A stretch of DNA of 64,000 nucleotides from Candidatus Heimdallarchaeum endolithica (GCA_021513715.1 CP084167.1:2880001-2944000), one strand, 5' to 3'; shown: positions 3,061 to 31,945, numbered from the stretch's first letter. The notes: generated by a model from the letters alone, not told the origin. Numbers and translations: made by a program.

Positions 3061-3116
3061 GAGACTGTTGGTGTTCTTGTAGATTATTAAAAATTAAGTT
3101 GATATGTGAATAGTAT

Positions 3117-3449
3117 ATGAATTATACTGTCGATTATGATAAAAAAAAGAAAAAAGCGGAGTGGCCCGCTTTCATAAATATAAGTGAATGGAAACAAGAA
3201 CACCCCGTAATATATTTAATCCCAGAACGTTGCAAAGCTTGTAGTTTCTGCATAAATTACTGCCCTGAACAGATACTTGAATTTTCTTCAGATATCAACC
3301 AAAAGGGTTATCATCTTCCCAAACTTAAAGAGGGTAAGGATTTTTCTAACTGTGCAGAGTGTCATTTTTGCGAATTAATTTGTCCTGAATTCGCTATTTT
3401 TGTGAAGGTTCCGGAAAAACAAGAAGAGGAGGAGAAACAAGATGAGTAA
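3117..3449 (+). CDS. korD: 2-oxoacid:ferredoxin oxidoreductase delta subunit (2x[4Fe-4S])
   Basis: CKACSFCINYCP and CAECHFCELICPEFAI; adjacent to korA. Confidence 0.88.
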   Translation: MNYTVDYDKKKKKAEWPAFINISEWKQEHPVIYLIPERCKACSFCINYCPEQILEFSSDINQKGYHLPKLKEGKDFSNCAECHFCELICPEFAIFVKVPEKQEEEEKQDE

Positions 3450-5471: not shown

Positions 5472-5472
5472 A

Positions 5473-9440: not shown

Positions 9441-9442
9441 AA

Positions 9443-11433: not shown

Positions 11434-11836
11434 GTATATAAAAATAGGAAAAGAAGAAAAAGAATTCATAAGTAAAATAGAAGATATCAGCGGACAGAAT
11501 CTATATGCATGTTATCAATGTGGAAAATGTACCGCTGGATGTTCTTTTAGTAATCAAATGGATCTTACAGTAAACCAAGTTATTCATAGATTACAACTTG
11601 GACAAAAAGAAAAAGTGCTGAGTGCAAAGAGTCCTTGGGTTTGTGCAAGTTGTCTGACTTGTACAGTAAGATGCCCACGAGATATTGACGTAGCTGCGAT
11701 AATGGAGTCAGTAAGAGAATACATTCTACGTTATGAACCAGAGAGGATAGAAAGAATGAAAGTTACAGAAGAAAAAGCTAAAAAGCTTCCTAATATAGCC
11801 CTTGTAGGTAGTTTTAGGAAAAATACTGAATTATAA
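11423..11836 (+). CDS. hdrC: Heterodisulfide reductase subunit C
   Basis: CYQCGKCTAGC and WxCASCLTCTVRCPR. Confidence 0.9.
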   Translation: MSFEYIKIGKEEKEFISKIEDISGQNLYACYQCGKCTAGCSFSNQMDLTVNQVIHRLQLGQKEKVLSAKSPWVCASCLTCTVRCPRDIDVAAIMESVREYILRYEPERIERMKVTEEKAKKLPNIALVGSFRKNTEL

Positions 11837-11848
11837 TAGGTGAATTAA

Positions 11849-12739
11849 ATGAAATATTCATATTTTCCAGGATGCAATCTCAAAACAAATGCAAAGGAAT
11901 ATGAACATACAGCTGTAGAAGTTTCAAAAATATTGGACGCTGAGCTCGTAGAAATGCCAGTGTTTAATTGTTGTGGGACAGTTCATAGTATGGTTTCAGA
12001 TAATACTATGAGAAGAGTGGCTCCTGTACGTATTCTTTCAAGATCTGAAGAACATCAGAAAGAGTTAGAAGATACAAAAAATACCGTTGTAACTCTTTGC
12101 TCGATGTGTAGTTCAACACTAAAAGTAGTGAATGAAGAAGTAAAAGAAGACGAAGAAATGCTACAAAAAATAAATTGGCAACTTGAAAGAGATAATCTAA
12201 AATATTCTGGCCATTCAGAAGTCAAACATTATTTAGAAATACTTAGAGATGAAGTTGGTTTTGAAGAAATCATTAAAAAGGTTAAAAAACAACTTAAAGG
12301 AATGAAAATTGCTTCCTATTATGGTTGTATGTTGTTGCACCCAGACAAAGCTAAAATAGATGATAGTGAAACACCTACAGTAATGGAAAGCCTTACTCTT
12401 GCACTTGGAGGAGAAGTAGTTGATTGGCCTTATTTTAAAACTTGTTGCGGTTCTTATCATGTTGTAGATAAAGAAGATATCGTAAACAATCAAGTTTTGA
12501 AAATAACGGAGGGTGCAAAAAAAAGAGGAGCTAATGCTATAATTACTGCTTGTCCTTTGTGCGCTTATAATCTAGATAGTCAACAAGTATTTTTACAGAA
12601 AAAAGGAGTAATTAAAGAAACCATACCTGTCTTCTACTTTACTCAACTTATGGCAATAGCTCTAGGGATAAAATTGAAAAATTTTGAAGATCATCATGTA
12701 GATCCTAAACCTTTACTAAAAAGTCTAGGATTAATTTAA
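11849..12739 (+). CDS. hdrB: Heterodisulfide reductase subunit B (two CCG domains)
   Basis: YFPGC, CCG, CSMC, YYGC, CCG, CPLC. Confidence 0.9.
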   Translation: MKYSYFPGCNLKTNAKEYEHTAVEVSKILDAELVEMPVFNCCGTVHSMVSDNTMRRVAPVRILSRSEEHQKELEDTKNTVVTLCSMCSSTLKVVNEEVKEDEEMLQKINWQLERDNLKYSGHSEVKHYLEILRDEVGFEEIIKKVKKQLKGMKIASYYGCMLLHPDKAKIDDSETPTVMESLTLALGGEVVDWPYFKTCCGSYHVVDKEDIVNNQVLKITEGAKKRGANAIITACPLCAYNLDSQQVFLQKKGVIKETIPVFYFTQLMAIALGIKLKNFEDHHVDPKPLLKSLGLI

Positions 12740-12758
12740 AAAAAAAGAGGAATAAAAA

Positions 12759-13481
12759 ATGGCAAAAGCAATATCAATGAGAGAAAAAAAAGAAGAACTT
12801 GACACAGTAACCATATATATTATGGGTCAAGGATACAAAGTTCCTTCTTCTTTAACCATAATGAAAGCAATGGAATATGCTGGTTTTAAACTTAAAAGAG
12901 GAGTCGGGTGTCGTGCAGGTTTTTGTGGAGCATGTGCAACCGTTTATAGAAAATTAGGCGATTACAAAATATATGCTAACTTGGCATGTCAAACTAAAGT
13001 TGAAGACGGGATGTATCTCACACAATTACCTTTTGTTCCTGCAAATAAAGCAGAATACAATCTTGATGAGATTAAACCTTCAGCTTCAACAATGCTCCGT
13101 TTCTATCCAGAAATAGCAAGATGCTTAAGTTGTAATGCTTGTTCAAGAGTGTGCCCACAAGATATACAAGTAATGGATTATGTTCAATACAGTTTGCAAG
13201 GGCAAATAGATAAAGCAGCTGAACTAGCTTTTGATTGTATTCAATGCGGTCTTTGCGCAATTCGTTGCCCAGCAGAGATTCCTCAATATCATGTGGCAAC
13301 ATTGGCACGAAGATTACATGGTAGATATCATATGATTGCTCCTGACACTCTAGAACAAAGAGTAAAGGAAATAGAAGAAGGAAAATACGAAAAAGGATTT
13401 GAAGAGTTGATGTCTCTATCTGAAGAAGAATTAAAGAAACGATACGTTGCAAGAGACTTTATTGATCAGAAAAAGGCGTGA
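12759..13481 (+). CDS. Fumarate reductase/succinate dehydrogenase-like Fe-S subunit
   Basis: GCRAGFCGAC...LAC [2Fe-2S] plus two CxxCxxCxxxCP motifs. Confidence 0.85.
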   Translation: MAKAISMREKKEELDTVTIYIMGQGYKVPSSLTIMKAMEYAGFKLKRGVGCRAGFCGACATVYRKLGDYKIYANLACQTKVEDGMYLTQLPFVPANKAEYNLDEIKPSASTMLRFYPEIARCLSCNACSRVCPQDIQVMDYVQYSLQGQIDKAAELAFDCIQCGLCAIRCPAEIPQYHVATLARRLHGRYHMIAPDTLEQRVKEIEEGKYEKGFEELMSLSEEELKKRYVARDFIDQKKA

Positions 13482-15145
13482 GTAAAATGATTAGAGGATA
13501 TCCAGAAAGTATGAGAAAAAGTATTGACAAAGTCAATAAAACAAGAGATAAGAGAATCGACCAAATTATGAAAGATTTGACTCTTGAAGAGCGTGAGAAA
13601 GTATTGCACGAGTTTCACCCAGACTATAATCCGGCATACAAAAGAGATATTGGTTGGGGACAAAATAAGGGAGATAATGTTCCTAATGAAGTAGCAGATA
13701 TACTGGAATCATATCCAATTTATGATCCAGATGAAATCGATTTAAGCCAAATAGACTATGATGTTGGCGTGTTGATTATTGGTGCAGGAGGAGCTGGAAC
13801 AGCAGCAGCATTATGGACTGTTTATTCTGGAGTGCCAAAAGATAAGATTCTGCTGGCAACCAAACTTAGGTTAGGAGATTGTAATACTGTTATGGCGCAA
13901 GGAGGAATCCAAGCAGCCGATAGACCAGAAGATTCACCTTTGATTCATTATTTGGATGCTATGGGTGGAGGACACTTCAAAAACAAACCTGAGTTAGTAA
14001 AAGCACTTGTTTCTGATGGACCAAAAATAATCAAGTGGCATAAAGAACTAGGTTTAATGTATGATCAAAACGAAGATGGAAGTTTTGTAGAAAATGCTGG
14101 TGGAGGAACATCCAGAAACAGAATGCACTGCGCTAAAGACTATACAGGAATGGAAATTTTCAGAAATTTAAAAGATGAAGTAATTAACAATGAGATACCT
14201 TTGTTAGAATTTTCTCCTGCTGTAGAGCTATTAAAAGATGAAAATGGAAGAGTAGCAGGAGCGTTATTGTATAATCTAGAAACGAAAGAATATTCTGTCG
14301 TGAGAGCAAAAACAACCATTTTAACCACAGGTGGATTCGGAAGGTTGCACATCGCAGGGTTTGCGACAACAAATCATTATGGAGCAACAGGAGACGGAAT
14401 AGTTATGGCTTACAGAGCTGGAGCTAAACTAAGAGACTTAGATTCAACACAGTTCCACCCAACAGGAGCAGCTTTTCCAGAGCAAATAGTAGGATTACTG
14501 ATTACTGAAAAATTAAGAAGCTTAGGAGCACAAGTTTTAGGAAAGAATGGTGAACAAATATGCTATCCATTAGAACCAAGAGATGTTGAAGCTGCTTCAA
14601 TAATAAAAGTAACAAAAAGTACAGATAATTATGTTGAAACTCCTACGGGAATGAGAGGAGTTTGGCTAGACAGCCCATTGATTGAAGAAATTAGAGGAAA
14701 AGGTACTATCGATAAGAATCTTGCTGCTATGAAAAGGATGTTCTCAAGATTCGATATTGATATGACTGAAGATCCTATACTAGTTCATCCAACTCTACAT
14801 TATCAGAACGGAGGAGTAGAACTTGATGAGCATGGTTATACTTCTGTACCTGGATTGCTAGGTGCAGGTGAGATAAGTGGTGGTGTTCATGGAAAGAATC
14901 GTCTCATGGGTAATTCTCTTCTTGAGGTCAACGTTTTCGGCAGAAGAGCAGGTATATCTGCTGCTAAAGAATATAAACGAGGTAAAAAACCAGGTAAGCT
15001 TACTCTGTCTCATGTAAAGAAAGCAATTGAGCAAATAGATACTCTAAATCTCAAGAAAAAACGTTTTTCACCTGTCATTCTTCCAGAATATCGTAGTGAA
15101 GCAGTTAGAGATCGTTTAATTCAACTATTTGAATCTAGTCTCTAG
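13478..15145 (+). CDS. Fumarate reductase/succinate dehydrogenase flavoprotein-like subunit (TfrA/FrdA family)
   Basis: GAGGAG, NTVMAQGG, QFHPT, LITExLR, PRD, HYQNGG, HGKNRLMGNSL. Confidence 0.88.
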   Translation: MSKMIRGYPESMRKSIDKVNKTRDKRIDQIMKDLTLEEREKVLHEFHPDYNPAYKRDIGWGQNKGDNVPNEVADILESYPIYDPDEIDLSQIDYDVGVLIIGAGGAGTAAALWTVYSGVPKDKILLATKLRLGDCNTVMAQGGIQAADRPEDSPLIHYLDAMGGGHFKNKPELVKALVSDGPKIIKWHKELGLMYDQNEDGSFVENAGGGTSRNRMHCAKDYTGMEIFRNLKDEVINNEIPLLEFSPAVELLKDENGRVAGALLYNLETKEYSVVRAKTTILTTGGFGRLHIAGFATTNHYGATGDGIVMAYRAGAKLRDLDSTQFHPTGAAFPEQIVGLLITEKLRSLGAQVLGKNGEQICYPLEPRDVEAASIIKVTKSTDNYVETPTGMRGVWLDSPLIEEIRGKGTIDKNLAAMKRMFSRFDIDMTEDPILVHPTLHYQNGGVELDEHGYTSVPGLLGAGEISGGVHGKNRLMGNSLLEVNVFGRRAGISAAKEYKRGKKPGKLTLSHVKKAIEQIDTLNLKKKRFSPVILPEYRSEAVRDRLIQLFESSL

Positions 15146-17613: not shown

Positions 17614-19020
17614 TTAAATAAAATCTCCTGTTTCTATTTTCTGTGGGAGGTAAAAGTTTGTAATAAATTGTGGATCACGTGCGTTTAGTGCCTGAATTTC
17701 CGCTTTGTATCCTGTGTTTATTAGTATTTCAAGTTGTTCTTGCCACTTTGGTTTTCTTTTTACGAACTCTTCCTCTAACATTAGTTTAGATCGTCTTATG
17801 TCTTTTTGAGTCATTTTAATTAGTGCTTCTCTAGGTATATCAAATCCACTTTCAGGTTTTAGATCACTTGGAAGCAAACCTAACCATTTAATATTTGGAA
17901 CTGCAAGATGAGTAGATTCGAAACTAAGAGCCTTACTCCCAACACTATATACTCTCATGATTTCGAAACCGTAAGGGTCAGCATCCATAATAGCAAGAAT
18001 AGGTAGTTGTAAATCATCGTTTATTTTCTTTAAAAATTGCCTTGTTGCCATATCAGGCTGACCTTTAGCTGTAACTAAAATACTTGGGACATAATCGTAA
18101 AAATGATCTTCTGCTAACCTGTTAAAAATAGCATCTTTTTCTATAACTAAACAAAATTCAGCATCACTTTCCAAATCTTCAATATCATCTATATTTGGAG
18201 AAATAGCCTTTCCTGAACCAATAGCTCTGCAGTCAATGAGATCTCCCTTTTCCTTGAATTGCAACTTACCAACAACAATTCCTTTAGAAGAAGCACTAAC
18301 ATTTAATGATGTTCTAGTAGCTTGAATCATCGCTCCTAAATCTTCAATAAGAGAATCAGAAACTGCTTGTTTCTTAAATGCATTAACATTCATGTAAAAA
18401 ATATCTCTTTTTGTACTGTGGATATCTCGGGAGAGTATATCATGAAGAAGCCTCATTAGTATAGACATTTGTTCAATTGTACTTACAGAAGATAAACTTC
18501 TAAATTGGCGTTCTATCATCTGCCTTCCAATAAGTACTAGCTCTTGTTCTTCATCAAAGCCAATATTTCTTTTTCCTCTTGAAGGGATTTTAAAACCAGC
18601 TTCATCAGGATTGTTAAGTGCTTCATTCAAAAATAATAGCGCTGCTTCAACAATTTTGTTTTTAGCTTTTTCTGAAGACATTGTTTCTACATTAGTTACA
18701 CCATAAGGTAACTCGTAGTCTTGTAATAAAGTAAGTTCATTCCTAAGTTTTCTTATTTTATCAACTGAAACTTTTCTTTTGATTTCAATTCTCATTAATT
18801 CCTTTTTAAGAGAATAATTACTAAGGACTTTACCTTTATCTAAGGAATACCACTTCTTTCCACTTCTCAAAAAGAGTACAAAAGAACCTTTTCTAAGTTC
18901 AAATTCGTCCTGTAATATCTGGTATAATTCGTTTATTTGAATGCTATTATCAAAACTCATCTTTACTTCAGTTGAAGGCAAAATTGTTGCATTTTTTACT
19001 AAAAAATTATATCTTACCAT
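17614..19020 (-). CDS. top6A: DNA topoisomerase VI subunit A (Spo11 family) with N-terminal ubiquitin-like domain
   Basis: TKRDIFY catalytic Tyr, Toprim VIEKDA and DADPYG, KAEIQAL; extra ~83-aa N-terminal domain. Confidence 0.93.
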   Translation of the reverse strand: MVRYNFLVKNATILPSTEVKMSFDNSIQINELYQILQDEFELRKGSFVLFLRSGKKWYSLDKGKVLSNYSLKKELMRIEIKRKVSVDKIRKLRNELTLLQDYELPYGVTNVETMSSEKAKNKIVEAALLFLNEALNNPDEAGFKIPSRGKRNIGFDEEQELVLIGRQMIERQFRSLSSVSTIEQMSILMRLLHDILSRDIHSTKRDIFYMNVNAFKKQAVSDSLIEDLGAMIQATRTSLNVSASSKGIVVGKLQFKEKGDLIDCRAIGSGKAISPNIDDIEDLESDAEFCLVIEKDAIFNRLAEDHFYDYVPSILVTAKGQPDMATRQFLKKINDDLQLPILAIMDADPYGFEIMRVYSVGSKALSFESTHLAVPNIKWLGLLPSDLKPESGFDIPREALIKMTQKDIRRSKLMLEEEFVKRKPKWQEQLEILINTGYKAEIQALNARDPQFITNFYLPQKIETGDFI

Positions 19021-19030
19021 TTTTTACACC

Positions 19031-22000
19031 TTATTTTGTACTCCTTTTTTTACTTTCAATCTTTTTATCTGCAGTAATTTCATCTAAAGTTGTTTGTTTT
19101 GTCCTTTTTGCTGTTGTTTTCTTTGCTGTTGTACTTGGTTTTTTTGCTGTTGCTGTTGTTTTCTTTGTTGTTGTTTTCTTTGCTGTTGCTGTTGTTTTCT
19201 TTGTTGTTGTTTTCTTTGCTGTTGCTGTTGTTTTCTTTGTTGTTGTTTTCTTTGCTGTTGTTGTTTTCTTTGTTGTTGTTTTCTTTGCTGTTGTTGTTTT
19301 CTTTGCTGTTGTACTTGGTTTTTTCTTTGCTGTTGTACTTGGTTTTTTTGCTGTTGTTGTTTTCTTTGCTGCTGTTGTTTTCTTTGCTGTTGTACTTGGT
19401 TTTTTTGCTGTTGCTGTTGTTTTCTTTGCTGTTGTTGTTTTCTTTGTTGTTGTTTTCTTTGCTGTTGCTGTTGTTTTCTTTGCTGTTGTACTTGGTTTTT
19501 TTGCTGTTGCTGTTGTTTTCTTTGCTGTTGTACTTGGTTTTTTTGCTGTTGCTGTTGTTTTCTTTGTTGTTGTTTTCTTTGCTGTTGTTGTTTTCTTTGC
19601 TGTTGTACTTGTTTTGTTTTTTACAAAAGGAATTGATTGTTTAATTTTCTTTATATCATTATAAGTCATCTCTAGTTTTCCTTCGAGCTGTGATGTTGGA
19701 TAAACAATAAATTCTCCGATTGTATTAATTCCGAGTGATTTTAGCTTATTTCGTATTCCCTGCTTAACATCCAACTTTTCTATTGGTTCTTCTATTAGCT
19801 TTTGTAACTTTTGTACATTTTCGTTTTTGAAAGTGTCTTTTTTCTTCACCCGATTATCAGCAAAGATCAACTCTTCAAAAGAATATATTCCTATTTCCTT
19901 CAGTTTTAATATTGTCTCACTACTCATAAATGGTGTATTTTTTACTATTTGCGTTTTACCTTTTTTTGCTATTTTTAGAGATTGAGGAGTTAAAGTAGCA
20001 AAATAGTTTTTCAACTGTCTTTCTGTTATATTAGTAATTTCAGTTAGTTCATTAATTCTTGTATTAAAAACGTCCCAGAGAGAATACTTCTGTTTATGGT
20101 ATAATTTAAAAATACTGTTTGGCTTATCCTGCATTAGTGCATAGAATGAGTAAATTGGGTATGAAAGAAGTTCTTTTAATGTGGATATCTGTTTAATTGT
20201 TAACTCTGTTTGCTCTTTAATCCTTTTATCAGAAACTGATAAATGTATAATGTGGGAAAAGCCTCCGTTTTCTAAGATAGATTTTTCAGTATCCGAAAAT
20301 AGACCTAAATCTTTGATTCTGTAACTATTTAGTTCTAATTGTTCCTTCACTTTAGTCATATTAAGAGAATGAAGAAGTTCAGTAAATTCTGCATGTTGTT
20401 TTTCTGTAAATTTAATATGTAAATCATCTATATTTTGTAAAAAGAAAAGATCATAAATTTGTTCATAACCTCTTTTTGATAGTTGGGAAAGTATGTTCTT
20501 TTGACGTATAAATAATGCTAATGATGCTCTAAAACAAGAAAGAACGTCTTTTACTTTCATCGATAAATCGCTTATATTTTTTTCTTCAAACAAAGCAATT
20601 AGTTCACCTAATGAATTTATATCATTTTTATTTAGCTCGTTAATTATTTCTTTATCATTTACAAATTCTATAAGTTTAGAATTACTTTGAGCTGTTAATG
20701 AATCTAGATTATGGAATGGAATTTGAGATAAAAAGTTTTTAAGAACAGTTATGTCTGTGGATTTATTTAATAATAGTAAATCATAGACTGTTTTTATGTT
20801 ATTTTTTAGTAGAAGCTTAAATGTTTCCTTACTTTCAAAGACAAGTGGAAGAGAGTAAATTTTTTGTTCTATTCTTAAACGGAGTTTTTCTGTAATCTTC
20901 CATCTCTTTGAAGTTTTTGACTTTGAAACAAGATTAAAGATATAAGCCTCTTCTATGGAGAAAATGTGACCTTGACTTAAAACATCTAATTCAGTTTTAT
21001 CCAAAATTGTTTCTGGAATGGGGGTTAACTTCGATGCAAGAGTACGTAAAGTTTCTAATGATAGATTTCGAATCTGACGTATTAGTTTATTATCATCGAT
21101 TATCTGATTTAACTGGTATTTAGGTTTTAAAATTAAATCTCCAATTGTTAAGTTGCCATATTGTTTGTATTTCTTTTTATTCTCAAAACTTTCACCTACT
21201 AGCAAAATAATGTGCCTATTTAGAAATTGTAAGTATTCATTAAAGTGTAAAGTTATGTTCTCAGGAAAAGAGCTTGTAATATTGTCAAATTTCTTTTTAT
21301 CATATTTCTCCAAAAGAAGTAAAGATTCAAGGGTATGTTGGATTTTTTGTTCATCTTCTTCAGGGAGATTCAACTTTTCTTCGAGTTTGGTTGGTTTTGA
21401 GAAAATAAATGAGTAAATATCAAGTAGCCTTTTTGACACTTGAGAGTCTACTTTTAGAGAGTCATGATGCATATTAAAGAAAACTAATTGTTGAAAACTT
21501 AAGTTGGGAAGTTTTTCATCAAAATATCGTGAAGAGAGTTTTTGTAAAAGTTCAATTTTTGTTCTTAATGAAGGTGAAAGGTTGGAAAAAACATCGGTGT
21601 TTTCAAAAAGATCAAGATAATTTTTAATACTATTTTCTCTTAATTCAGCAATATCAAAATCTTGTAGAACAATATTTGTTTTTAGAGCAGGAGGATTGCT
21701 TATCCTAGAAATAGTAATTTTACTAAGAAAAGTGTCAACTTCACTATTCTTTGTGTCTATAATTTTTGCAAGATCTGATTTAGATAACAAAAGCATTTCT
21801 TGTATAGTACTTACTTTGGACAAAAGTTTCAACCAATTTTCAAGAGGAAGTTGTGGAAAAGAAATTAGATAAATAGACTTGTTTAATATTTTTAGAACAT
21901 TATTTCGTAATTTACTTCTCAGTCTACTGTGTTTCTTTGATAAATCATAAATCAAATCATCAACAACTGTATAATATTTCAATAATTCTTTCTTTGTTTC

Positions 22001-25000
22001 ACTATCAAATAGCATAATATTAGAAAGTTGAACTCTTTTATCTCTCAATTTTCTAATTGTGTTAAGATTCAAAGTTGAGAGAACGCGATTAACTTTCTCA
22101 AGTTGTTTTTCTGTTAAGAATGAAGAATATGAAATTGGCTTAATTAGTAAATCTTTCAGTGTTTCGATTTTATGTTCATTTAGTTTTTCTATTTCTTTTT
22201 CTGTAAAATCTGTTACTATAGAGATGGAACTGTTGAGAAGATTTAAAATTTCTAACCCTTTTTTAGTAAGAGTCTGTTTGTTCATGTACAATACAGAAAT
22301 AAGATCGATTATATTTGAGATATCTGGAATTTCAATGTTTTTACTGAATAAGTCTTTTGAATTAATAGTACCAAGAAAATCTCCTGTTTTTAATGTAAGA
22401 GATAATGTTTTCTTTTTATCTTTAATCAGATTACTAATTATTGTGCTATAACCACCTAAGTTGATTAGTTTATCGTTTTTGATAAGATCCTTGACAGTGA
22501 AAAGATTGTTGTCAAAATATTTTGTTTCAATTTCTTCAAATTCTAAGGAATTAATAGCACCTAAAAATAGGATTGAAGTATCTAATATTTGTTTTATTTT
22601 TGTTTTTATTTTATTTATCTTTTTTATATCGTAAAGCCAGCTGTATATTGAATTCTCTTCTAAATCTGAAAAACTATAGAACCCATAAGAAGACAATATG
22701 TCCTTTTCTTTTTCACTAAGAAATGGCAAATCTACTAAATGATTGGGTTTATCATGTTCAATTGCATTTTTTATGTTTTCTATCTTAATTGATGAACGAA
22801 GTTTTAATATTTGATCAAGTTTAATCCTTGATTTGTGTGCAAGTGTTTTATATGGGATAAGAAGTAAATCTGCAATAGTATATATTCCACCTTTTTTAAG
22901 ATTAGTTTCTAATTTCTCTTCTAATCCTAAGTATCGAATATTAGCTAGTAAATAGGGACTAATTTCTGCAAATATGTTTTTATCTTTTAGGTTAATATCT
23001 CCAAGTAATTCTTGATAAGACAAGTATCCTAGTTTCATTATTTTTTCTTCATATGAAGTTAAAGGAGGGCTAAATTGTTCAAGTTGTAGATTCTTTAATG
23101 TTGATAGACTTGATAAAATTTCATCAACCATTTCATCTTTCAGATTTTGAATAGAGGAAATAACATCAATAATATGAATTATATTTTTGCTATAGCAATA
23201 TTCTATTGTAGAGAGTGTTAGTATAGGTAGATTATTTATATTTCTACATAATTTCATTCTAATGTTTCTAATTTCTTCAAGATATGAATCAGGCAAATTT
23301 GAGAAAAATTCTTCAGGGAAGTAATATAAGTATTCAATAGAGAAAACTCCTAAATTATATAATTTTTGAACTAATGATTTATTTAACTTCAAATTAGCTA
23401 TATCAAGAGTAGAGAATTGAAGAGAAGATAGGTTTCTAATGAAGAGAGAATTGTTCTCTTTTATCATCTTATTTAATTCTGGAAGATAGCTTTCCCACAA
23501 ATAAATTGGAATATGAAGATAGTCATAATAGGTGTTTTTATTTTTCAATGAAGATTCAACATTTATTATTGAAATGCCAAATATTCGTTCAATTGTTTTT
23601 ATTGGTGTAAAGAGAACAGGAAAATTGACTATCAGTTTTTCTTTTTCTTCTTTGCTTATTTCTATTTGATTAACGTCTTGATAAAATAGCTGAATCAAAG
23701 AGTAAATTTCATTTTCATTAAGATGTTTAATCGTAGAAATTTCTGGTTTTTCAATTGTTTTTAGACTAGTACCTTCCTTTGCCTCACGCTTTTTGATGAG
23801 TGGGAGTTTACCCTCTCCTGTGATCTCTTCTTCAGTTAAAGATGGTAAAAGGTTTAAGTCAATACCATAGATTTTAAGTTCTGAAATAATATCTTGTTTG
23901 TTTATTTGTGATTTAATAGTTTTTATTTCTTTAAACTCTATTCCAAACAATTGGCTTAAGGAAGCTGAAGGAATGGTTAAGAATTCAAGAATTGTGTTAA
24001 TTTTGTTGTTCAAAAGAATAGAATTTTGCTGTAATGAGAGAGAATTTAAGAAGGAAGTTGGAGTTGAACCAAACAAAGAGAGAGTCTTTTTTATTGTAGC
24101 TAGATTTTTATCTTCTAAGCTGTAATCTTGTAAACAAAGAAGTTGATCTAAATAATCAATTTTAATCTTTTTTAAAGCTAGCTTCTGTTCCTTCGTCAAA
24201 AACTTTACATCATGTAGTTTGATGGCCCATTTAGGTATTTGAAAATCAGATAAGGAACTTACTAAATATTCTGCCATTTCTGTATTAATCTTTTCTGGGG
24301 GAAGAAGTAATAAATCAAGAATGAGTTTTTTATTTTCTTTTATCAATTTTCTTAAGAACTCGAGTTGTTCTATTTGAGAAAATTTGTCCAACCAAATAAT
24401 TGGATATTTAACCTTGTTTGTGAGGGATTCAGAGTTATTAAAGAGGATTTGAGAACCAATAACAAATGGTTGAGGAAGTAAATCGAGTAAATTAATAACG
24501 TCGAGAGAGGTCTTAATATTTAGTTTATCATTCTTGTTTGATAGAATATCCAAATGGTCTTTAGGGATCAGATTAACCAATTTTTCTTTGGAAAACTCTT
24601 TTACAAAACGGATAATCTCTGTTCTAGCATTTGAAGGAATTGATCTTTTTTCTTCAGAACTGAGTGTAAGAAGTTCAATGATGTTTTTTACTTCGTTTTT
24701 CCACAAATCAAGCTTGACATCTAAAGATATTTCAGGTATAGAAAAAATGTTTAGGCTTAAACCATAGATAAATTCTTCAAGTTTAGCGATGCTACTTGCT
24801 TTTTCTATTTTTTCACTTTCAGAGAATATAAGAAGATATTCTGGTACCAACCCAAAGATATCTTCAAATGATGCCTTTGAAAGGTTAAACTTAAAGTTTG
24901 TGAGTGCACTCATTAACTCTTTATCTTCCTCAAGAATTGGAATGCCTGAACTAAGACTTATATTTCCTTTTCTTTTCTCCTTTAGTTCTTCAGGGATAAA

Positions 25001-28000
25001 ATTAAGGATACTCTTAAGATCTTTTTCTCTAACTGTGAAAAGATCAATAACTCGTAGAATGCGATTCTTTGCAAGAGTACGTTTAATAAATCGCGAAAGG
25101 TTTGAAATTCTGAAAATAGAGGAGTTACAAAGAGATAGAAAAACGTCGATATTTTCTTCAAATTCATCTGAAAATGATTTTATTTGATAGCTTAAACTAT
25201 AAAGATCTTGAACTGTTTCTTTATTTAGTTTTTGTAAAGTCATAAGATTTCTCTTTGATAGTAAGGTTAGAGATTCAAGTTTTACTCCTTTTTCTGCTAC
25301 TTCTTTCTGGATTTTTTTAACTGAAACATTTTCCTTTATTTTTATAATTTCTGCCTCTGGTATGTCTAAGATTAATGATATTGTGGTGATATCTTCTGTT
25401 AAGAAAGTAAGTATATCTCCAACTCCAGAATATACAAGCTTGAGCATTTGCTCTAGTTCTAAATCTAAGAAGAATACTGATGAGAGATACAATTTTGCTT
25501 CTTTGAATACATTCATATTCACTAAATAGGGATATGATTTTCTGATTTCAGACATTCTAGAAATGAAGTCTTGGATTGAATAAATCCCAAGTTCATGTAA
25601 CTTTTCAACATATTCATCTGTAATAGAGGGACAATTTTCTAAAGGAATAGCAAAACTAAGTCTTTTCTCTTTTAGTTCGTCTAATGAAAGCAAGTCAAAT
25701 ATGTGGAATTCATTATAAATTGGATTGTTTAGGATTTGAGACAATTGTCCTTTTTCAAAAAGAGACAAATCAATTACAGAGTGAATGTCGTGTAGTTCTA
25801 ACTTCTTTATTTCTTCAAAAGACAAGAAACTGAGGAAAGTTATTGAACCAGATAATAGCTCTTTGAATTCCTTATATTTTTCTTTTTTTAGAATACTGGA
25901 AGCTCCCATTCTTACTCCTGCATAGTATAAAGTTTCTATATCTGATATCCCTATTTCTTGTAACTTAGAAATTTCTGATTCAGTGATAAGAGATGAGGGC
26001 ATAATGGGGTGAGATCTAGTTCTATGTAATTCGACGATTTCACCGTAGGAAAGATTTTCCTTTATTTCATTAATTCTTTTTTGTGTTTCATTGGATATTT
26101 CAGAAAGTTTCTTGGTAGGGGTAGAATAAAAGTCTATTAATGTTGTAATTGAAGATCGACTGAGAGGGAGAGCGAGATTAGCATCAAGGTTTAGAGACGA
26201 AATAGGGATAGATAAATCGCCTATAAGTTTATCTAAACTATTTTCCTCTCTTAATTTGTTTTTTATTTCTAAAAGAGGAGAGCTCTCTTCAAATTCAAGT
26301 TCAAACAAGATACCTAAAGTTACAGTAGAGAAATCGTTCCTTGTTTCTTCATTCAAAAAGTTAAGAAAAGGGGTTATTCCAAGAGGAAGTTCAAAGACTG
26401 AACGAATAAGTGTAATATTACATTTTTCAAAAGCTAGTTGTCTTTCAAACTCACTGAGAGTTTTAATCAAATCCGTACTGGATATCACATCAAGTAGTGA
26501 TGACTCTTCTATGTCATCTAAAATAGAAGAAAAGAAGTCTTTATTGTATGCTGTTGCAGAAATAAAATCAAAGTAATGATAAGCTCTCATGTCAATTAAT
26601 TTGGATGAATAATCTGAAACTGTCCTAAACAATGTTCTGTCTGTTAAATCGTTATCTAATATGAAAATTAAATGGTAGAGATGTGAAATTTTGTTTTGAT
26701 TGAAAATAGTTAAAGAATAATCTGATATTTCCTGAAAAATTCGTAAAGGAAGTGATAATATCTTCTTTAGTGTGAAAACTTTTCGCCAGATAGATGATTT
26801 TCTATCAATGAAAACTTCATCAGGGCAGTAGAAAAGCTCTTGAATAGATTGAAATCCTTCATAACTATAAATTGTTTCTCTACTTAATGTTCTTTGTTCA
26901 TTTTTATCAAAAAGTTTAGTTTCATATGCATAGATTGCCCTTGTTTCATATTCTTCTCTTATTCTTTGAGAAGTTAAAATGTCTATTATTTCTTTAATTT
27001 CTTTTGTTGAAATGTTTAAGATGCTACTGAGTTTAACAGATGAAGTAGAAACAAAATCAACAATTGTTAATATATCAGCTTTTCTAAGTTCTTCTGTTTG
27101 TGAAAAAGAAAGTTTTGGTAAGAAATATACCGGTAAACTGAAAAAGTAGAATATTTCTCCAAGATCTAGACTCCTTTTAATATTGTCAAATCGTTCATCA
27201 GGAACTCCTGTTCTCTCCATTAAGACTTTGGATGATGTAAGTAGAAAACCTAGTAAGGTGTTTATTTTATTTTTCTTTAGAAGAGTAATTATATCTGGAT
27301 CTAACATATCTGACAAATGCTTAAAGCGTAGATTTAACACGTTTTTTAAGTTCTGTATTATTTCCCAAGGAATTGTGTTAATTGCCCATTTCTCTTGTTG
27401 AGTAGAAAAGTATAGGTCTTCAATGGTAAAAATATTGTTTGTTTCTAGAGTTTCTACTATAGAGGGTCTAAAGATGTCGAGTTCAGAAATGTCAGTACCT
27501 GTTTCACTAATTCGAATGTTTTTCTTGTATTTTTTAGCTTCTTCTAGATCAATTTTCAAGATTGAAGCAATTTTCTCATCACTAACAAGGAAAAAGTCTA
27601 TAATTCGTCTAATCCCAGTTTTTCTTAAAGCATTCAGCTGTTCATGAGATAAACTTGTTATTTCAACTTCGTCTACTTCTTTTTCTTGTTTCGTTTCCTC
27701 GTTTAATATTTTCTTCTTTACTGTTTTTTCCCAAGTGACAAGAGTCAAGGGAGAACGCAATAGCTTTTTGAATTTCTCAATTACTCCCCATTTTATAATA
27801 GTTGCACCAAAAGTATAAGGGTGTGTCAAGTAAAAGAGTTTGTCAATAGAATTGTATCCTATAACAAGTAAGGACAGTATTTCTTCTGGTGAAAAACGTT
27901 CTGAATTTTCGAAATCAAAAGAAATTGTAGATACATATTTTCCACTAGCTACTTTTTCATAAAATGGTTGTCCATCTCTATTTAAATCAAAATTGTTTAT

Positions 28001-31000
28001 TAGTTCATCAAAACTCTTCTTTGAAAAATTAAGGAGTGTTCTTAATTCATCAAAACTGTAATTAAAAAATTGATGTAAGGAGTATATTTTTTTTGATGCT
28101 AAAACCTCATAATCTTTAAGTTTCAAACCTTTTATACGAGTGATTGGGAGTTGCAAAAACTGATAGAAGTCAATTATTTCTTGAGATAGCAAAACTTTTT
28201 CAGAAAAATCATCTGAAACTTTAAGATTTTTACTATTTATGTTATCGTAGAATTCTAGTAAGACTTTCCTGTCTTTATTTTTAGAAATTTCTGTTTCAAT
28301 GAATGCAGGTGTTAGTTGAAGAAAATCTCTTATTGTATTTACATCCTTCGTTTTAAGCTTAAGAATTGCATCATTCAAAGATTTTGCTTTAGCTTTTGTT
28401 GGAGCTAATTTTGTTAAAAAGAGTATATCTTCATTCATGAATTCTTGAAAGTTATTCATTTTTGATAGAAACTCAGAGATAGGTGGGAGTTCTTCTTCAA
28501 TATAAAAGTAAAACAACTCTTGTATTGTTGTTTGTTGTTCATTGAATTGTTTGACCAATCTCGGGAAGTGCTTTTTTATAATTTTTAAATTTCCTTTGTA
28601 CAATTGTTTGTTTTTCTTAACCTTGTCAGCAGATATGCTTTGTTTTAAACGAATGATCTCTTCCTCGTTAAGGTTTAGTATTAGAGAGAGTTCTTTATTA
28701 CTCCATATAAGAAACCTCCCTATACAATTTACTCCTACCTCATTTAATACGTTAATTTTCTCATTTAATTCAGGAAAAGCAAAAATTAAAGGTGTTCGTA
28801 ATAATAAATAATCTGAAATGTATTGATTCTTAGTTTGTTCATCTTCAAATCCGAAATCTTCTGGGTTAGAGTATATTAAATCCTCTACTGTATATATTTC
28901 ATACTTGTTTGCTTTGCTTTTCAAAGATAGAAAATTGGGAATGGGTGTACCTATTTTTTTCTTTATTCTTGCAATCTCACTTTTTAATAACCCCATTTCG
29001 CGTAATCTTTTTGAAGGAGTAATCAAGAATGATGTAGAAGTAAATATTTTATTTTCCAATAATCTTTCTTCTGCCTTTTCATTAATTACTTTGAGGTGAG
29101 ATAAATCAAGATCTCTATTTGTTTCATTGAGATGAGTAAGTATGCGAAGTTTCGATTCTTCCAATAAACTATCCACAAAAATAGCTAATTCCTTTTTCAT
29201 TAAAGTTCTTAACTTTGCATTTGCATATTGGGCTAGAGTATCTATGTTCACAGACTTAAAAATGTCTAATATGCTCTTTTTTGTGCTATCATCTATAGTA
29301 GATATTAGTTTTAGTTTGCTTAGAGGAATTGATTTTTCAGTGTTAGCCAGAATAGTAAAGAATCTTGTGTAAATTGAACGCTCTAATTCTTTGATCTCTA
29401 GAAGGTCCTTAGTTGGTTTTTCAAGAAAATTTTTTATTGTCTCTATCTTTCGTCTATGGAAAGCATTTTTAGTATAACCGTCTATCCAGTCAGGTTTCAT
29501 TTTTGTTATATTAGTTTTTAGAAATTCAGGAAACTTCTGTGAAATATGCGAAAATACTTTCTTAATATAATCAATCAAGATTTCTGTTAAATCATTTTCA
29601 TATTTATAAGAAAAGGGCTCATTAAACTTGAAAATAAAATCTTCTAGTCCTCTAAACTTATTTGAAAAGTTGGGATAGGTTGTTTTTACATAGTTGAAGT
29701 CAGGATATAGAAATTCTTCTTTTAATTCTGAATAAGCAGACATGGTATCCAAATTGAACTTAAATTCTTGAATAAAACTTGATAAATCGACTGTTTCTTC
29801 TGAGTTTTGAGATTTCGTAATTTCACTAATTAACTTAAATTTGTTTCCCTCTATTAAACGCTCTACTAATCCTTCAACAAAACGTAATTGTGTAGCTTCT
29901 GTTGCTAAATAGTGATAACTATTTTGAATCCATCTTTGATATAAAGCTTCATTGAAACTACTACTTGTTCCTCTTGCAAACCTTTTATCAATTGTTTTGT
30001 TTGTTAATGCTTTCAGAGGAAGTTCAGGGCTCAACTTGGACCTGTCTAATTCATAAATTGTCCTTTGCTTTATTCTTGAAACTTCTTTTTTTGAAAGATT
30101 TAGAATTGTGGACAATTCTGAAATTGGTATAGAGAGAAACTTTCCTATTGTTAAAATATTATTTTTAGCACAATTGTTTTTATATTTGTCTGGACACCAC
30201 ACATTAAGTTCAAAAATCGGTGTTCCTAAAGGAACAAAATTCCTAATTTTCTTTTTTGCTCCATGGGCAAGAGCTGCTGCAACCTTATATTTCTCTTTAT
30301 TTATATTTGTATAAACTATTTTTTCATTCTCCAATATTCTAGCGAGATTATCGATTACAACAGGGGCTGATCTTACAAAACGAGATAATCTTGCATGTTC
30401 TCTTTTTCTTCTTTTTGCTCTACTTAGGAAAGTTTTTAGTCTTCTACCAAGTTGTTGCAAAGCTAATCTTATCTCTTCTTCAATCTCAGGAACAGTTGAA
30501 ATATACTCTTTACTAGTTTCAGGAAAAGGAATTTTTGTACTTACTATTGACACAGCAATAGCTAGCGGGTCTGATTGTCTTGTAAGTCCATATTCGCTCC
30601 AATTTAAAGAAGAAACTACTTTTGTAATAACATCATTTCCCGCACCAAAAATTAGAGGAATTCTATTTGCATATCTGTAAATTATTTTATTATCAACTGA
30701 TGTGCTTCCTTTTTGTTGGGCATATTTAGATACTCCACCTCCATAACCTATTGCAGCTTCTACAATAAAAGGGTGGCCAGAGTAAGCTTTTGGAGGACGA
30801 GAAATTGCTTCAACAAATTCTGGTTCAAGTTCTTTTTCTAAACCTTTTCTTAGTCTTGCTGCTCCTAAAGGAGAAAGAGCATCACCTTGTGGAGCGTCGA
30901 ATCTAAAGATCCTATCCCTCTTTCTTTTTATTTCTTTAGCTTCTTGGTATGCTTTAATGAATCCTTCATGAACTATTCTTCTAATTTCTTTTGAAGTAAG

Positions 31001-31945
31001 TTCGCTTGGTTTTTTGTTAGGATCAATTTCCAAAATTTGAAAGAATTCCTCAGCAACTTCCTTTCTCACTCCCATGAAGTCTTTTGATAAAAATTCGATT
31101 AGATCATTTGCAGAGGTTGCAGCTATTTTTGCTTTGAATTGAGTAATATCACAACCAAATGGGTGTAGTTGAATTACTTTTGGAGGATCTGGCATGTCAT
31201 CTACTACTTTTTGAAAAACTAGTTTTTCACTTGTTCCTTCTTCATCTCCAGGTAGTACTACAGTGAAACTAGCATAAGGGGTAATTATTGCTAATTGCTT
31301 AAAGTATTCTTTAATGCTGTTTTTTGCTAGATTCCAAGCTCCAGTGAAAGTTATACTTATCTCAGTTCCACTAGTATGTAAATATCCTTGGTCATCAGGA
31401 TAATATTCATGCTGCTCCATGATGACTGGTTCATTTTTTTCTAAATTAATCATTAAATGAACTTCATTTGTCATTTCTTCCATGAAGTATCTGCTTTTTA
31501 TTCTTGCAGGAAGATCAACTGAAGACATAGAGTGAATTAAACACATCTTGGCTCCTAAACCAAATCTTCCTCTAGTTTGAATCACTCCATATTTTGTCCC
31601 TGTTAATACTCGACCAAAAAGGTTCGGAATCTCGTGACCTGGAACACCTACACCATTATCTCTGCATGTTAACTGAAGAAAATCAAGATGTTTTTCTAAT
31701 TGTTTATATCTAGTAATATCTAATAATTCATTAATTTCAGAACTAGTTAGTTTTCTTAATTCAACATATATTTCTGGATTTACACCTAGTTTTTCAGCTG
31801 CATCTAAACCATTTTCAACTAACTCTCTAACTGATGTGAAAACAGCTCGCATTGAATTACCAAAACCTGCAATAGCCTTATTTTCATTAAAAAAAGCAGC
31901 TGCACTCATTTTTCGTGTTTTATTTTCTTCAGTCACAAAATTCAC
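19031..31945 (-). CDS. top6B: Giant DNA topoisomerase VI subunit B (GHKL + transducer + long HhH-like repeat array + basic tail), 4304 aa
   Basis: RELVENGLDA, DNGVG, TGTKY..QTRGRFGLG, RYANRIPL, PFPETSKE in aa 1-~545; uninterrupted frame; 10 bp upstream of top6A. Confidence 0.9.
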   Translation of the reverse strand: MNFVTEENKTRKMSAAAFFNENKAIAGFGNSMRAVFTSVRELVENGLDAAEKLGVNPEIYVELRKLTSSEINELLDITRYKQLEKHLDFLQLTCRDNGVGVPGHEIPNLFGRVLTGTKYGVIQTRGRFGLGAKMCLIHSMSSVDLPARIKSRYFMEEMTNEVHLMINLEKNEPVIMEQHEYYPDDQGYLHTSGTEISITFTGAWNLAKNSIKEYFKQLAIITPYASFTVVLPGDEEGTSEKLVFQKVVDDMPDPPKVIQLHPFGCDITQFKAKIAATSANDLIEFLSKDFMGVRKEVAEEFFQILEIDPNKKPSELTSKEIRRIVHEGFIKAYQEAKEIKRKRDRIFRFDAPQGDALSPLGAARLRKGLEKELEPEFVEAISRPPKAYSGHPFIVEAAIGYGGGVSKYAQQKGSTSVDNKIIYRYANRIPLIFGAGNDVITKVVSSLNWSEYGLTRQSDPLAIAVSIVSTKIPFPETSKEYISTVPEIEEEIRLALQQLGRRLKTFLSRAKRRKREHARLSRFVRSAPVVIDNLARILENEKIVYTNINKEKYKVAAALAHGAKKKIRNFVPLGTPIFELNVWCPDKYKNNCAKNNILTIGKFLSIPISELSTILNLSKKEVSRIKQRTIYELDRSKLSPELPLKALTNKTIDKRFARGTSSSFNEALYQRWIQNSYHYLATEATQLRFVEGLVERLIEGNKFKLISEITKSQNSEETVDLSSFIQEFKFNLDTMSAYSELKEEFLYPDFNYVKTTYPNFSNKFRGLEDFIFKFNEPFSYKYENDLTEILIDYIKKVFSHISQKFPEFLKTNITKMKPDWIDGYTKNAFHRRKIETIKNFLEKPTKDLLEIKELERSIYTRFFTILANTEKSIPLSKLKLISTIDDSTKKSILDIFKSVNIDTLAQYANAKLRTLMKKELAIFVDSLLEESKLRILTHLNETNRDLDLSHLKVINEKAEERLLENKIFTSTSFLITPSKRLREMGLLKSEIARIKKKIGTPIPNFLSLKSKANKYEIYTVEDLIYSNPEDFGFEDEQTKNQYISDYLLLRTPLIFAFPELNEKINVLNEVGVNCIGRFLIWSNKELSLILNLNEEEIIRLKQSISADKVKKNKQLYKGNLKIIKKHFPRLVKQFNEQQTTIQELFYFYIEEELPPISEFLSKMNNFQEFMNEDILFLTKLAPTKAKAKSLNDAILKLKTKDVNTIRDFLQLTPAFIETEISKNKDRKVLLEFYDNINSKNLKVSDDFSEKVLLSQEIIDFYQFLQLPITRIKGLKLKDYEVLASKKIYSLHQFFNYSFDELRTLLNFSKKSFDELINNFDLNRDGQPFYEKVASGKYVSTISFDFENSERFSPEEILSLLVIGYNSIDKLFYLTHPYTFGATIIKWGVIEKFKKLLRSPLTLVTWEKTVKKKILNEETKQEKEVDEVEITSLSHEQLNALRKTGIRRIIDFFLVSDEKIASILKIDLEEAKKYKKNIRISETGTDISELDIFRPSIVETLETNNIFTIEDLYFSTQQEKWAINTIPWEIIQNLKNVLNLRFKHLSDMLDPDIITLLKKNKINTLLGFLLTSSKVLMERTGVPDERFDNIKRSLDLGEIFYFFSLPVYFLPKLSFSQTEELRKADILTIVDFVSTSSVKLSSILNISTKEIKEIIDILTSQRIREEYETRAIYAYETKLFDKNEQRTLSRETIYSYEGFQSIQELFYCPDEVFIDRKSSIWRKVFTLKKILSLPLRIFQEISDYSLTIFNQNKISHLYHLIFILDNDLTDRTLFRTVSDYSSKLIDMRAYHYFDFISATAYNKDFFSSILDDIEESSLLDVISSTDLIKTLSEFERQLAFEKCNITLIRSVFELPLGITPFLNFLNEETRNDFSTVTLGILFELEFEESSPLLEIKNKLREENSLDKLIGDLSIPISSLNLDANLALPLSRSSITTLIDFYSTPTKKLSEISNETQKRINEIKENLSYGEIVELHRTRSHPIMPSSLITESEISKLQEIGISDIETLYYAGVRMGASSILKKEKYKEFKELLSGSITFLSFLSFEEIKKLELHDIHSVIDLSLFEKGQLSQILNNPIYNEFHIFDLLSLDELKEKRLSFAIPLENCPSITDEYVEKLHELGIYSIQDFISRMSEIRKSYPYLVNMNVFKEAKLYLSSVFFLDLELEQMLKLVYSGVGDILTFLTEDITTISLILDIPEAEIIKIKENVSVKKIQKEVAEKGVKLESLTLLSKRNLMTLQKLNKETVQDLYSLSYQIKSFSDEFEENIDVFLSLCNSSIFRISNLSRFIKRTLAKNRILRVIDLFTVREKDLKSILNFIPEELKEKRKGNISLSSGIPILEEDKELMSALTNFKFNLSKASFEDIFGLVPEYLLIFSESEKIEKASSIAKLEEFIYGLSLNIFSIPEISLDVKLDLWKNEVKNIIELLTLSSEEKRSIPSNARTEIIRFVKEFSKEKLVNLIPKDHLDILSNKNDKLNIKTSLDVINLLDLLPQPFVIGSQILFNNSESLTNKVKYPIIWLDKFSQIEQLEFLRKLIKENKKLILDLLLLPPEKINTEMAEYLVSSLSDFQIPKWAIKLHDVKFLTKEQKLALKKIKIDYLDQLLCLQDYSLEDKNLATIKKTLSLFGSTPTSFLNSLSLQQNSILLNNKINTILEFLTIPSASLSQLFGIEFKEIKTIKSQINKQDIISELKIYGIDLNLLPSLTEEEITGEGKLPLIKKREAKEGTSLKTIEKPEISTIKHLNENEIYSLIQLFYQDVNQIEISKEEKEKLIVNFPVLFTPIKTIERIFGISIINVESSLKNKNTYYDYLHIPIYLWESYLPELNKMIKENNSLFIRNLSSLQFSTLDIANLKLNKSLVQKLYNLGVFSIEYLYYFPEEFFSNLPDSYLEEIRNIRMKLCRNINNLPILTLSTIEYCYSKNIIHIIDVISSIQNLKDEMVDEILSSLSTLKNLQLEQFSPPLTSYEEKIMKLGYLSYQELLGDINLKDKNIFAEISPYLLANIRYLGLEEKLETNLKKGGIYTIADLLLIPYKTLAHKSRIKLDQILKLRSSIKIENIKNAIEHDKPNHLVDLPFLSEKEKDILSSYGFYSFSDLEENSIYSWLYDIKKINKIKTKIKQILDTSILFLGAINSLEFEEIETKYFDNNLFTVKDLIKNDKLINLGGYSTIISNLIKDKKKTLSLTLKTGDFLGTINSKDLFSKNIEIPDISNIIDLISVLYMNKQTLTKKGLEILNLLNSSISIVTDFTEKEIEKLNEHKIETLKDLLIKPISYSSFLTEKQLEKVNRVLSTLNLNTIRKLRDKRVQLSNIMLFDSETKKELLKYYTVVDDLIYDLSKKHSRLRSKLRNNVLKILNKSIYLISFPQLPLENWLKLLSKVSTIQEMLLLSKSDLAKIIDTKNSEVDTFLSKITISRISNPPALKTNIVLQDFDIAELRENSIKNYLDLFENTDVFSNLSPSLRTKIELLQKLSSRYFDEKLPNLSFQQLVFFNMHHDSLKVDSQVSKRLLDIYSFIFSKPTKLEEKLNLPEEDEQKIQHTLESLLLLEKYDKKKFDNITSSFPENITLHFNEYLQFLNRHIILLVGESFENKKKYKQYGNLTIGDLILKPKYQLNQIIDDNKLIRQIRNLSLETLRTLASKLTPIPETILDKTELDVLSQGHIFSIEEAYIFNLVSKSKTSKRWKITEKLRLRIEQKIYSLPLVFESKETFKLLLKNNIKTVYDLLLLNKSTDITVLKNFLSQIPFHNLDSLTAQSNSKLIEFVNDKEIINELNKNDINSLGELIALFEEKNISDLSMKVKDVLSCFRASLALFIRQKNILSQLSKRGYEQIYDLFFLQNIDDLHIKFTEKQHAEFTELLHSLNMTKVKEQLELNSYRIKDLGLFSDTEKSILENGGFSHIIHLSVSDKRIKEQTELTIKQISTLKELLSYPIYSFYALMQDKPNSIFKLYHKQKYSLWDVFNTRINELTEITNITERQLKNYFATLTPQSLKIAKKGKTQIVKNTPFMSSETILKLKEIGIYSFEELIFADNRVKKKDTFKNENVQKLQKLIEEPIEKLDVKQGIRNKLKSLGINTIGEFIVYPTSQLEGKLEMTYNDIKKIKQSIPFVKNKTSTTAKKTTTAKKTTTKKTTATAKKPSTTAKKTTATAKKPSTTAKKTTATAKKTTTKKTTTAKKTTATAKKPSTTAKKTTAAKKTTTAKKPSTTAKKKPSTTAKKTTTAKKTTTKKTTTAKKTTTKKTTATAKKTTTKKTTATAKKTTTKKTTATAKKPSTTAKKTTAKRTKQTTLDEITADKKIESKKRSTK
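19105..19612 (-). repeat. Coding tandem repeat giving a (T/A)2-4-KK / KKPSTTAKK low-complexity tail
   Basis: Shuffled units ttctttgctgttgttgt, gtacttggttttttt and gctgttgct over ~0.5 kb. Confidence 0.95.

Follow-up and report, generated by a model that had tools for sequence, protein, structure and literature searches.

Topoisomerase VI subunit A (Top6A) is the archaeal homologue of the meiotic protein Spo11. Its catalytic residues are the tyrosine of the 5Y-CAP domain and the Mg-binding acidic residues of the Toprim domain, a glutamate and a DxD motif. In the solved Topo VI holoenzymes (2zbk, 2q2e) the N-terminal segment of the A subunit clamps onto the end of the transducer of the B subunit. 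In eukaryotes, ubiquitin-like (UBL) and UBX adaptors link clients to the proteasome or to Cdc48, and the closest known archaeal relatives of eukaryotes belong to the Heimdall group. Brinkmeier et al. (2022, PMC9665070) described an "additional N-terminal helix" in the TopoVIA of Asgard archaea and eukaryotes. A precedent for a UBL without a degradative function is provided by SMCHD1, where the domain stabilises the GHKL ATPase module and its dimer (PMC6620310).

The DNA analysed here, referred to as the window, is a stretch of 64,000 nucleotides from Candidatus Heimdallarchaeum endolithica (CP084167.1:2880001-2944000) that encodes a Top6A protein with a predicted UBL at its N-terminus. No description of a UBL on Top6A was found in full-text searches of the literature, and none is mentioned in the Topo VI phylogeny papers PMC9665070 and PMC11302465. 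A 2025 paper on the Asgard replisome discusses Top6A paralogues and never mentions ubiquitin (PMC12680538). The sole earlier public trace of the domain is an automated RefSeq name, "ubiquitin-like protein". This is the only name given to WP_287583880.1 (P0032; 165-1553 of the Borrarchaeum locus discussed below), which is a full Top6A. The JGI name for members of the same cluster is "meiotic recombination protein SPO11", and neither name conveys the fusion.

Gene and operon

The topoisomerase VI genes lie on the minus strand of the window and comprise the following features.

17614..19020, minus strand: top6A gene, 468 aa (open reading frame, Pfam, and alignment to 2zbk_A)
17635..18156, minus strand: Toprim domain (residues 289-462) with E294 and D346/D348 (Pfam and alignment)
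18298..18477, minus strand: 5Y-CAP/winged-helix domain (TP6A_N, residues 182-241), with the codon of the catalytic Tyr209 at 18394-18396 (Pfam and alignment)
19027..19033, minus strand: top6B stop codon TAA (19031-19033), with the Shine-Dalgarno sequence GGTG (19027-19030) immediately after it, 6 nt before the top6A ATG
19031..31945, minus strand: giant top6B gene, 4304 aa, encoding the partner subunit (open reading frame)

Top6A and Top6B are each encoded in a single copy in the 3.33-Mb single-contig genome, which also encodes gyrase. Assignment of the A subunit is supported by both of its domains, which exceed their Pfam cut-offs (TP6A_N, PF04406, residues 182-241, 68.5 bits against a cut-off of 26; Toprim, PF21180, residues 289-462, 200.6 bits against 24.1). 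Residues 111-468 aligned with residues 9-388 of Sulfolobus shibatae Top6A (2zbk_A) with an E-value of 8e-57, and in this alignment Y209 (RDIFY), E294 (VIEKDA), and D346/D348 (DADPYG) match the corresponding motifs. Because the alignment begins only at residue 111, about 100-110 residues at the N-terminus of the window protein are extra. The top6B gene ends 10 nt upstream of the top6A start, and the succession of top6B stop codon, GGTG, and top6A ATG suggests that translation of the two genes is coupled.

Two modules of the giant Top6B arm resemble DNA-binding folds of the helix-hairpin-helix type. Residues 1610-1660 (window positions 26966-27118) matched Pfam RAD51D_N with 74.5 bits (cut-off 27.3), and residues 1910-1966 matched RNA_pol_A_CTD with 20.8 bits, slightly below the cut-off of that family. 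Outside the window, the GyrA match of the gyrA gene (G000:C1:2465029-2467680) falls into two parts, covering model positions 1-41 and 37-431 and lying about 1.3 kb apart within one open frame of 1270 aa, which suggests an intein or another large insertion.

Translation start and selection

The N-terminal 115 residues of Top6A are present in 29 of the 31 genomes of the family, with 41-49% identity outside the genus and with stop-free matches, and the reading frame of the extended protein is kept in about 60 genomes. A site of the GGAGG/GGTG type is found shortly before the same methionine (M1) at all 20 of the loci examined. In the window's family (f1) the spacing between the end of top6B and M1 ranges from a 10-nt gap to a 7-nt overlap, and gaps of up to 181 nt occur in other families. 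The dN/dS ratio (Nei-Gojobori) across nine close pairs was 0.05-0.31 for the first 85 codons and 0.004-0.05 for the catalytic core, indicating that the N-terminal region is selected as protein, less tightly than the core.

The earlier note on this DNA, made from the sequence alone, had named a start further downstream, for example at MSSEKAK (M114), among the findings that would overturn its reading of the N-terminus as a domain. This start was ruled out by the Shine-Dalgarno sequence at M1, by the purifying selection on the N-terminal codons, and by the lack of conservation of position 114, which is not a methionine in most orthologues. These comparisons of gene sequences place the start of translation at M1 and show that the UBL is under purifying selection.

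Predicted fold of the N-terminal domain

The N-terminal domain comprises the following feature.

18766..19020, minus strand: ubiquitin-like β-grasp domain, residues 1-85, pI 9.8, without di-Gly (AlphaFold2, Foldseek, VIA-align, conservation, and dN/dS)

The structure of the N-terminus was predicted with AlphaFold2 using an alignment of 20 sequences, which gave a pLDDT of ∼90 over residues 1-90; the pLDDT obtained with the single sequence, 52, is a hint only. The predicted elements are β-strands at residues 3-10 and 17-24, an α-helix at 29-40, and β-strands at 47-53, 56-60, and 76-82, followed by a helix at 86-101. The strand-strand-helix-strand-strand-strand order of the model is that of a β-grasp domain, and it is formed by the same segments from which the earlier note had read such a fold in the ∼83 extra residues.

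A Foldseek search of the PDB with the predicted domain returned 80 matches at E ≤ 1e-3, with a best E-value of 6e-5. The leading matches were to ubiquitin, ISG15, and the UBL of TBCE, with TM-scores normalised to the target of 0.70-0.82. Comparison with 48,161 representative chains using VIA-align gave the highest Z-scores for the UBLs of TBCE (12.5) and TBCB (12.0), with ubiquitin at 10.4 and Nub1, Dsk2, parkin, FAT10, SUMO, the UBX domain of UBXD7, and talin F0 at 9.8-11.6. The best 50 VIA-align matches (Z 12.5-9.6) are all ubiquitin-like domains of eukaryotic type. ThiS and MoaD, which had been suggested for comparison alongside ubiquitin and UBX, are not found among these 50, and the window domain is not stand-alone and has no C-terminal GG.

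Sequence relationship to the ubiquitin family

At the level of sequence the UBL of the window had no Pfam match above the gathering score. Weak matches to FERM_f0, a family with the ubiquitin fold, were obtained for 7 of the 20 family members (best E 0.0045). The orthologues from Candidatus Borrarchaeum, by comparison, exceed the cut-offs of both PF00240 ubiquitin (27.4 and 26.7 bits; cut-off 25.4) and PF11976 Rad60-SLD (29.8 and 30.2 bits; cut-off 23.8). When alignments of the UBL only were compared with hhalign, that of the window's order (families f1-f4) matched that of Borrarchaeum (f28) over 78 columns with an E-value of 3.6e-5 and a probability of 71%. By sequence, the UBL of the window is thus linked to the ubiquitin family indirectly, through its Borrarchaeum orthologues.

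A direct alignment of one motif with ubiquitin, proposed in the earlier note, was reproduced by both HMMER (UBL profile positions 60-76 against ubiquitin 49-65) and hhalign. It is a weak likeness, worth 3.9 bits per match in the former and a P-value of 0.003 in the latter, and by itself is not significant as a sequence match. A sequence-profile search of the PDB gave only ubiquitin and polyubiquitin; this result was not counted as significant, since its low E-values are the product of adding up nine repeats, each worth 3.9 bits.

Apart from two polyubiquitins, all sequences retrieved by a profile search of 1.84 billion representatives were Top6A N-termini or fragments of these. The search detected no stand-alone homologue of the UBL and no other host protein (short matches being counted as Top6A fragments), and likewise no eukaryotic or other Top6A/Spo11 bearing the domain. 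The description of the domain as a "eukaryote-like" addition holds for the class of fold. Matches in the ESM Atlas were confined to unrelated clusters below threshold. Descent of the UBL from the free ubiquitin encoded in the same genome was also considered and found no support (hhalign P 0.065).

Attachment to the Top6A core

Two features connect the UBL with the remainder of the protein.

18718..18765, minus strand: helix, residues 86-101, running straight on from β5 (AlphaFold2)
18685..18711, minus strand: linker motif LPYGVTNVE, residues 104-112, with P105, G107, V108, and V111 invariant (orthologue alignment)

The helix is predicted with a pLDDT of about 84-91, and the chain passes into it from β5 without a break. 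It is the additional helix known from Asgard and eukaryal TopoVIA (PMC9665070), and by eye it lines up with the helix at the N-terminus of canonical Asgard Top6A proteins of 394-418 aa. These proteins have, in the same comparison by eye, a motif similar to the linker (LPxxVxxV), and several of them begin with a short Lys/Arg-rich tail ahead of this helix and the LPxxV motif. The helix and LPYGVTNVE together thus correspond to the canonical Asgard N-terminus, which makes the UBL an addition placed before an otherwise Asgard-typical Top6A.

No Gly-Gly follows β5 in any of the 20 orthologues (residues 80-120 were checked). The absence of a di-Gly motif, together with the continuation of β5 into a confidently predicted helix, identifies the UBL as an integral domain and not a modifier, as the earlier note had anticipated. 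N-terminal ubiquitin fusions do occur in eukaryotes, and E1 and E2 genes are present in the genome, so the UBL might be imagined as a modifier that is released or conjugated after cleavage, like the ubiquitin of ubiquitin-ribosomal-protein fusions. The missing Gly-Gly and the uninterrupted helix argue against such a fate, as does the existence in the genome of a true free ubiquitin of 78 aa, which ends KGGF and has no significant similarity to the Top6A UBL; we regard release or conjugation as extremely improbable. It is nearly certain that the first ∼85 residues of Top6A form an integral, non-conjugatable ubiquitin-like (β-grasp) domain.

The gene for the free ubiquitin ending KGGF lies in a cluster (G000:C1:1706500-1712500, positions 917-4806) that also holds genes for a 334-aa E1-like protein with a weak C-terminal match to the ubiquitin family and for a 472-aa protein with a UQ_con/UEV-like N-terminus.

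Distribution and phylogeny

To assess the distribution of UBL-Top6A, 400 genomes of the phylum were scanned with a profile. Matches were obtained in 28/30, 1/1, 3/3, and 12/12 genomes of the four families that make up the window's order, in 12/22 genomes of a second family of the class (f5, MAGs labelled Hodarchaeota), and in 3/5 genomes of Borrarchaeum (f28). The only other matches, four in family f20, were weak (E 0.002-0.009) and were treated as noise. The UBL was accordingly not found in most of the Asgard families scanned. A scan for the Toprim domain detected long Top6A frames both in those f5 genomes that the profile had not matched and in family f6, all f5 and f6 frames being 466-506 aa in length; the Top6A frames of other Asgard families are 387-424 aa.

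In a maximum-likelihood tree calculated from catalytic-core columns only, all 18 sampled long Top6A proteins fall on one side of a branch with an SH-aLRT support of 99, and the support is 100/99 when the UBL columns are added. By this phylogeny UBL-Top6A is one clade, comprising Heimdallarchaeaceae and related families, Hodarchaeales, and Borrarchaeum. The tree, whose root is not fixed, is consistent with a single gain of the UBL, which we consider probable.

Association with giant Top6B

The length of the Top6B encoded next to UBL-Top6A was measured in seven genomes from four families. The values are 4304 aa in the window, 4191 and 4202 aa in the same family, 3473 aa in family f4, 2312 and 2314 aa in family f5, and at least 2293 aa in Borrarchaeum, where the frame is broken by masked bases. 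Canonical Top6A is paired with Top6B proteins of 543-660 aa (families f8, f11, f14, f27, and f28). In every lineage measured, the gene immediately upstream of that for UBL-Top6A therefore encodes a giant Top6B of 2293-4304 aa, which bears out the co-occurrence that the earlier note had put forward for checking. This co-occurrence could stem from shared ancestry of one operon rather than from physical contact between the two proteins.

Variation in the Topo VI loci of other genomes was also recorded. In Borrarchaeum (G307:C6:515200-535199) two Topo VI operons adjoin, at positions 11573-14427 and 162-11548. The canonical pair consists of a Top6B of 564 aa and a Top6A of 387 aa, and the giant pair consists of a Top6B of at least 2293 aa, with a 972-aa frame past the masked bases, and a UBL-Top6A of 463 aa. 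This double operon offers a natural system in which to ask what the giant form adds. In genomes of Hodarchaeales type (G066:C1, 8546-13023; G058:C9, 8110-12638) gyrB-gyrA is immediately followed, on the same strand, by the giant top6B and UBL-top6A, which brings all type II topoisomerase genes together in a single cluster. In families f7 and f20 the Top6B upstream of a canonical Top6A measures at least 757-778 aa from mid-protein to end, with a frame that runs beyond the fetched stretch. A full length of roughly 1000-1100 aa is implied, that is, B subunits of intermediate size without a UBL on A.

Recognition motifs

The earlier note had interpreted the domain as a UBL/UBX-like link between the DNA-cleaving subunit and the proteasome or Cdc48. 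As a handle for degradation or extraction, the UBL would bring the proteasome, PAN, or Cdc48 into contact with Top6A, for instance for the removal of trapped covalent cleavage complexes; an intermediate in which protein and DNA are covalently joined is a plausible client for such machines. The genome has a ubiquitin system of eukaryotic type, with the free 78-aa ubiquitin (KGGF) and genes for E1 and E2/UEV, and the predicted fold matches the UBL or UBX domains of Nub1 (Z 11.6), Dsk2 (10.9), parkin (10.9), Ddi2 (9.8), and UBXD7 (10.3). These proteasome-shuttle and UBX matches are, however, no better than those to TBCE/TBCB, ISG15, SUMO, and talin F0.

In UBX domains a conserved Arg and an FPR motif in the β3-β4 loop insert into the N-domain of p97. 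The corresponding loop reads LRSGKKW in the window protein and FLFNKKV in Borrarchaeum, both without the FPR motif that would mark a member of the UBX class. By hydrophobic register, a charged residue (E79) occupies the β5 position that matches V70 of ubiquitin, so that preservation of the Ile44 patch is not obvious. A search of the window's genome revealed no UBA domain or receptor, and the distribution of the UBL tracks the giant B subunit, with no UBL in most of the Asgard families scanned. Taken together, an unexceptional UBX score, a loop without FPR, and a genome with no UBA match lend no specific support to the proposed link with the proteasome or Cdc48, and we consider a handle for degradation or extraction unlikely. 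A role as a recognition handle for Cdc48/PAN-proteasome or for an Asgard ubiquitin/ESCRT reader, by which Top6A covalently trapped on DNA might be extracted or regulated, is in our view quite improbable.

Charge and possible role of the UBL

The UBL is highly basic, with a pI of 9.2-10.3 in 19 of 19 lineage representatives, and the rest of Top6A is acidic (pI 5.4). Conservation across lineages extends to basic residues at columns 44, 52, 55, and 81, beside the hydrophobic core. Since the N-terminus of the A subunit is bound to the end of the B transducer, the UBL is expected to lie at the A-B junction. At this position it would be close both to the place where the giant C-terminal arm of B emerges from the core and to the exit of the G-segment DNA from the A dimer. 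We propose that the UBL may be a built-in adaptor that would touch DNA and/or the initial modules of the B arm with its conserved basic face (K44, R52, K55, and K81). Such contact would tie the giant arm to the cleavage core, and the UBL would take the place of the short Lys/Arg-rich N-terminal tail of several canonical Asgard Top6A proteins.

Docking on the giant B subunit, a role that had been raised in the earlier note, fits the co-occurrence of the two in every measured lineage. Among the VIA-align matches is also 8id2_A (Z 10.1), the UBL of SF3A1 bound to RNA, which is a further precedent for a UBL acting outside degradation. On the other hand, nucleic-acid-binding UBLs are rare, which counts against an adaptor that contacts DNA. 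Charge profiles of the giant B arms revealed no conserved acidic patch complementary to the UBL. Since the charge of the arm is neutral to acidic and conservation between families does not extend to its tail, the analysis points to no specific site of docking.

Alternatively, the UBL might be an internal structural strap, as in SMCHD1, that packs on the Toprim or 5Y-CAP domain, in either its own A protomer or the opposite one, or on the B transducer. It would then stabilise the dimer or the gate without involving DNA or the giant arm. In SMCHD1 the N-terminal UBL that precedes the GHKL ATPase is needed for dimerisation (PMC6620310), and in models of Asgard/eukaryal TopoVIA the N-terminal helices pack on Toprim (PMC9665070); it is to this helix that the UBL is directly attached. 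Nevertheless, canonical Topo VI dimerises without a UBL, packing of this kind has no need of a conserved high positive charge, and the link with giant B is left unexplained. We therefore think neither the packing nor an independent stabilising effect likely.

Placement of the UBL as an adaptor at the A-B junction, in contact with DNA and/or the giant arm, is a serious and still tentative possibility. Ubiquitin-like identity and adaptor role combined form the best explanation as a whole, one that we judge to be somewhat probable. A UBL hard-wired on the only Topo VI cleavage subunit, in combination with a Top6B of 4-8 times the usual size, amounts to a remodelled type IIB topoisomerase. Should the UBL connect the giant DNA-binding arm with the catalytic core, it would belong to a new mode of chromosome organisation. 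If, instead, it is a handle for protein-handling machines, control of DNA-cleaving enzymes through the ubiquitin fold would predate eukaryotes.

Comparison with known systems

With the canonical archaeal Top6A proteins (S. shibatae 2zbk_A, 389 aa; M. mazei 2q2e_A, 369 aa; M. jannaschii 1d3y_A) the window protein shares the 5Y-CAP tyrosine, the Toprim acidic residues, and the top6B-top6A gene order. It differs from them in having the UBL (residues 1-85) and the helix of Asgard/eukaryote type, and in a partner B subunit of about 8 times the normal size. In comparison with the Asgard/eukaryal TopoVIA proteins (PMC9665070), helix 86-101 and LPxGVxxV align by eye with the canonical Asgard N-termini of proteins of 394-418 aa. 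The difference lies in what precedes the helix, which is a short tail in those proteins and a folded UBL in the window protein.

The integral UBLs of eukaryotes (TBCE/TBCB, 9eeb_E and 4b6w_A; ISG15, Dsk2, parkin, Nub1, and talin F0) have the same β-grasp topology (Z 12.5-9.8), with an rmsd of about 1.8-2.4 Å over 74-82 residues and an identity of 9-24%, and the window UBL resembles them in being a non-cleaved module within a larger protein. It is distinguished by a longer β3-β4 hairpin (an RSGKKWY insertion that is not found in Borrarchaeum), by its very basic character, and by its host, a DNA-cleaving enzyme. In SMCHD1 (PMC6620310) a UBL is likewise located at the extreme N-terminus of GHKL/Topo VI-related machinery, where it is structural and not a modifier. 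That UBL is on the ATPase chain and aids ATP-dependent dimerisation, whereas the window UBL is on the cleavage subunit, and the likeness between the two is one of fold.

A further counterpart is the Candidatus Borrarchaeum sp. orthologue WP_287583880.1, which belongs to the same UBL-Top6A clade and whose UBL exceeds the Pfam cut-offs for ubiquitin and Rad60-SLD. Its β3-β4 hairpin is shorter and more like that of ubiquitin, and its genome keeps a canonical Top6B/Top6A pair alongside the giant one.
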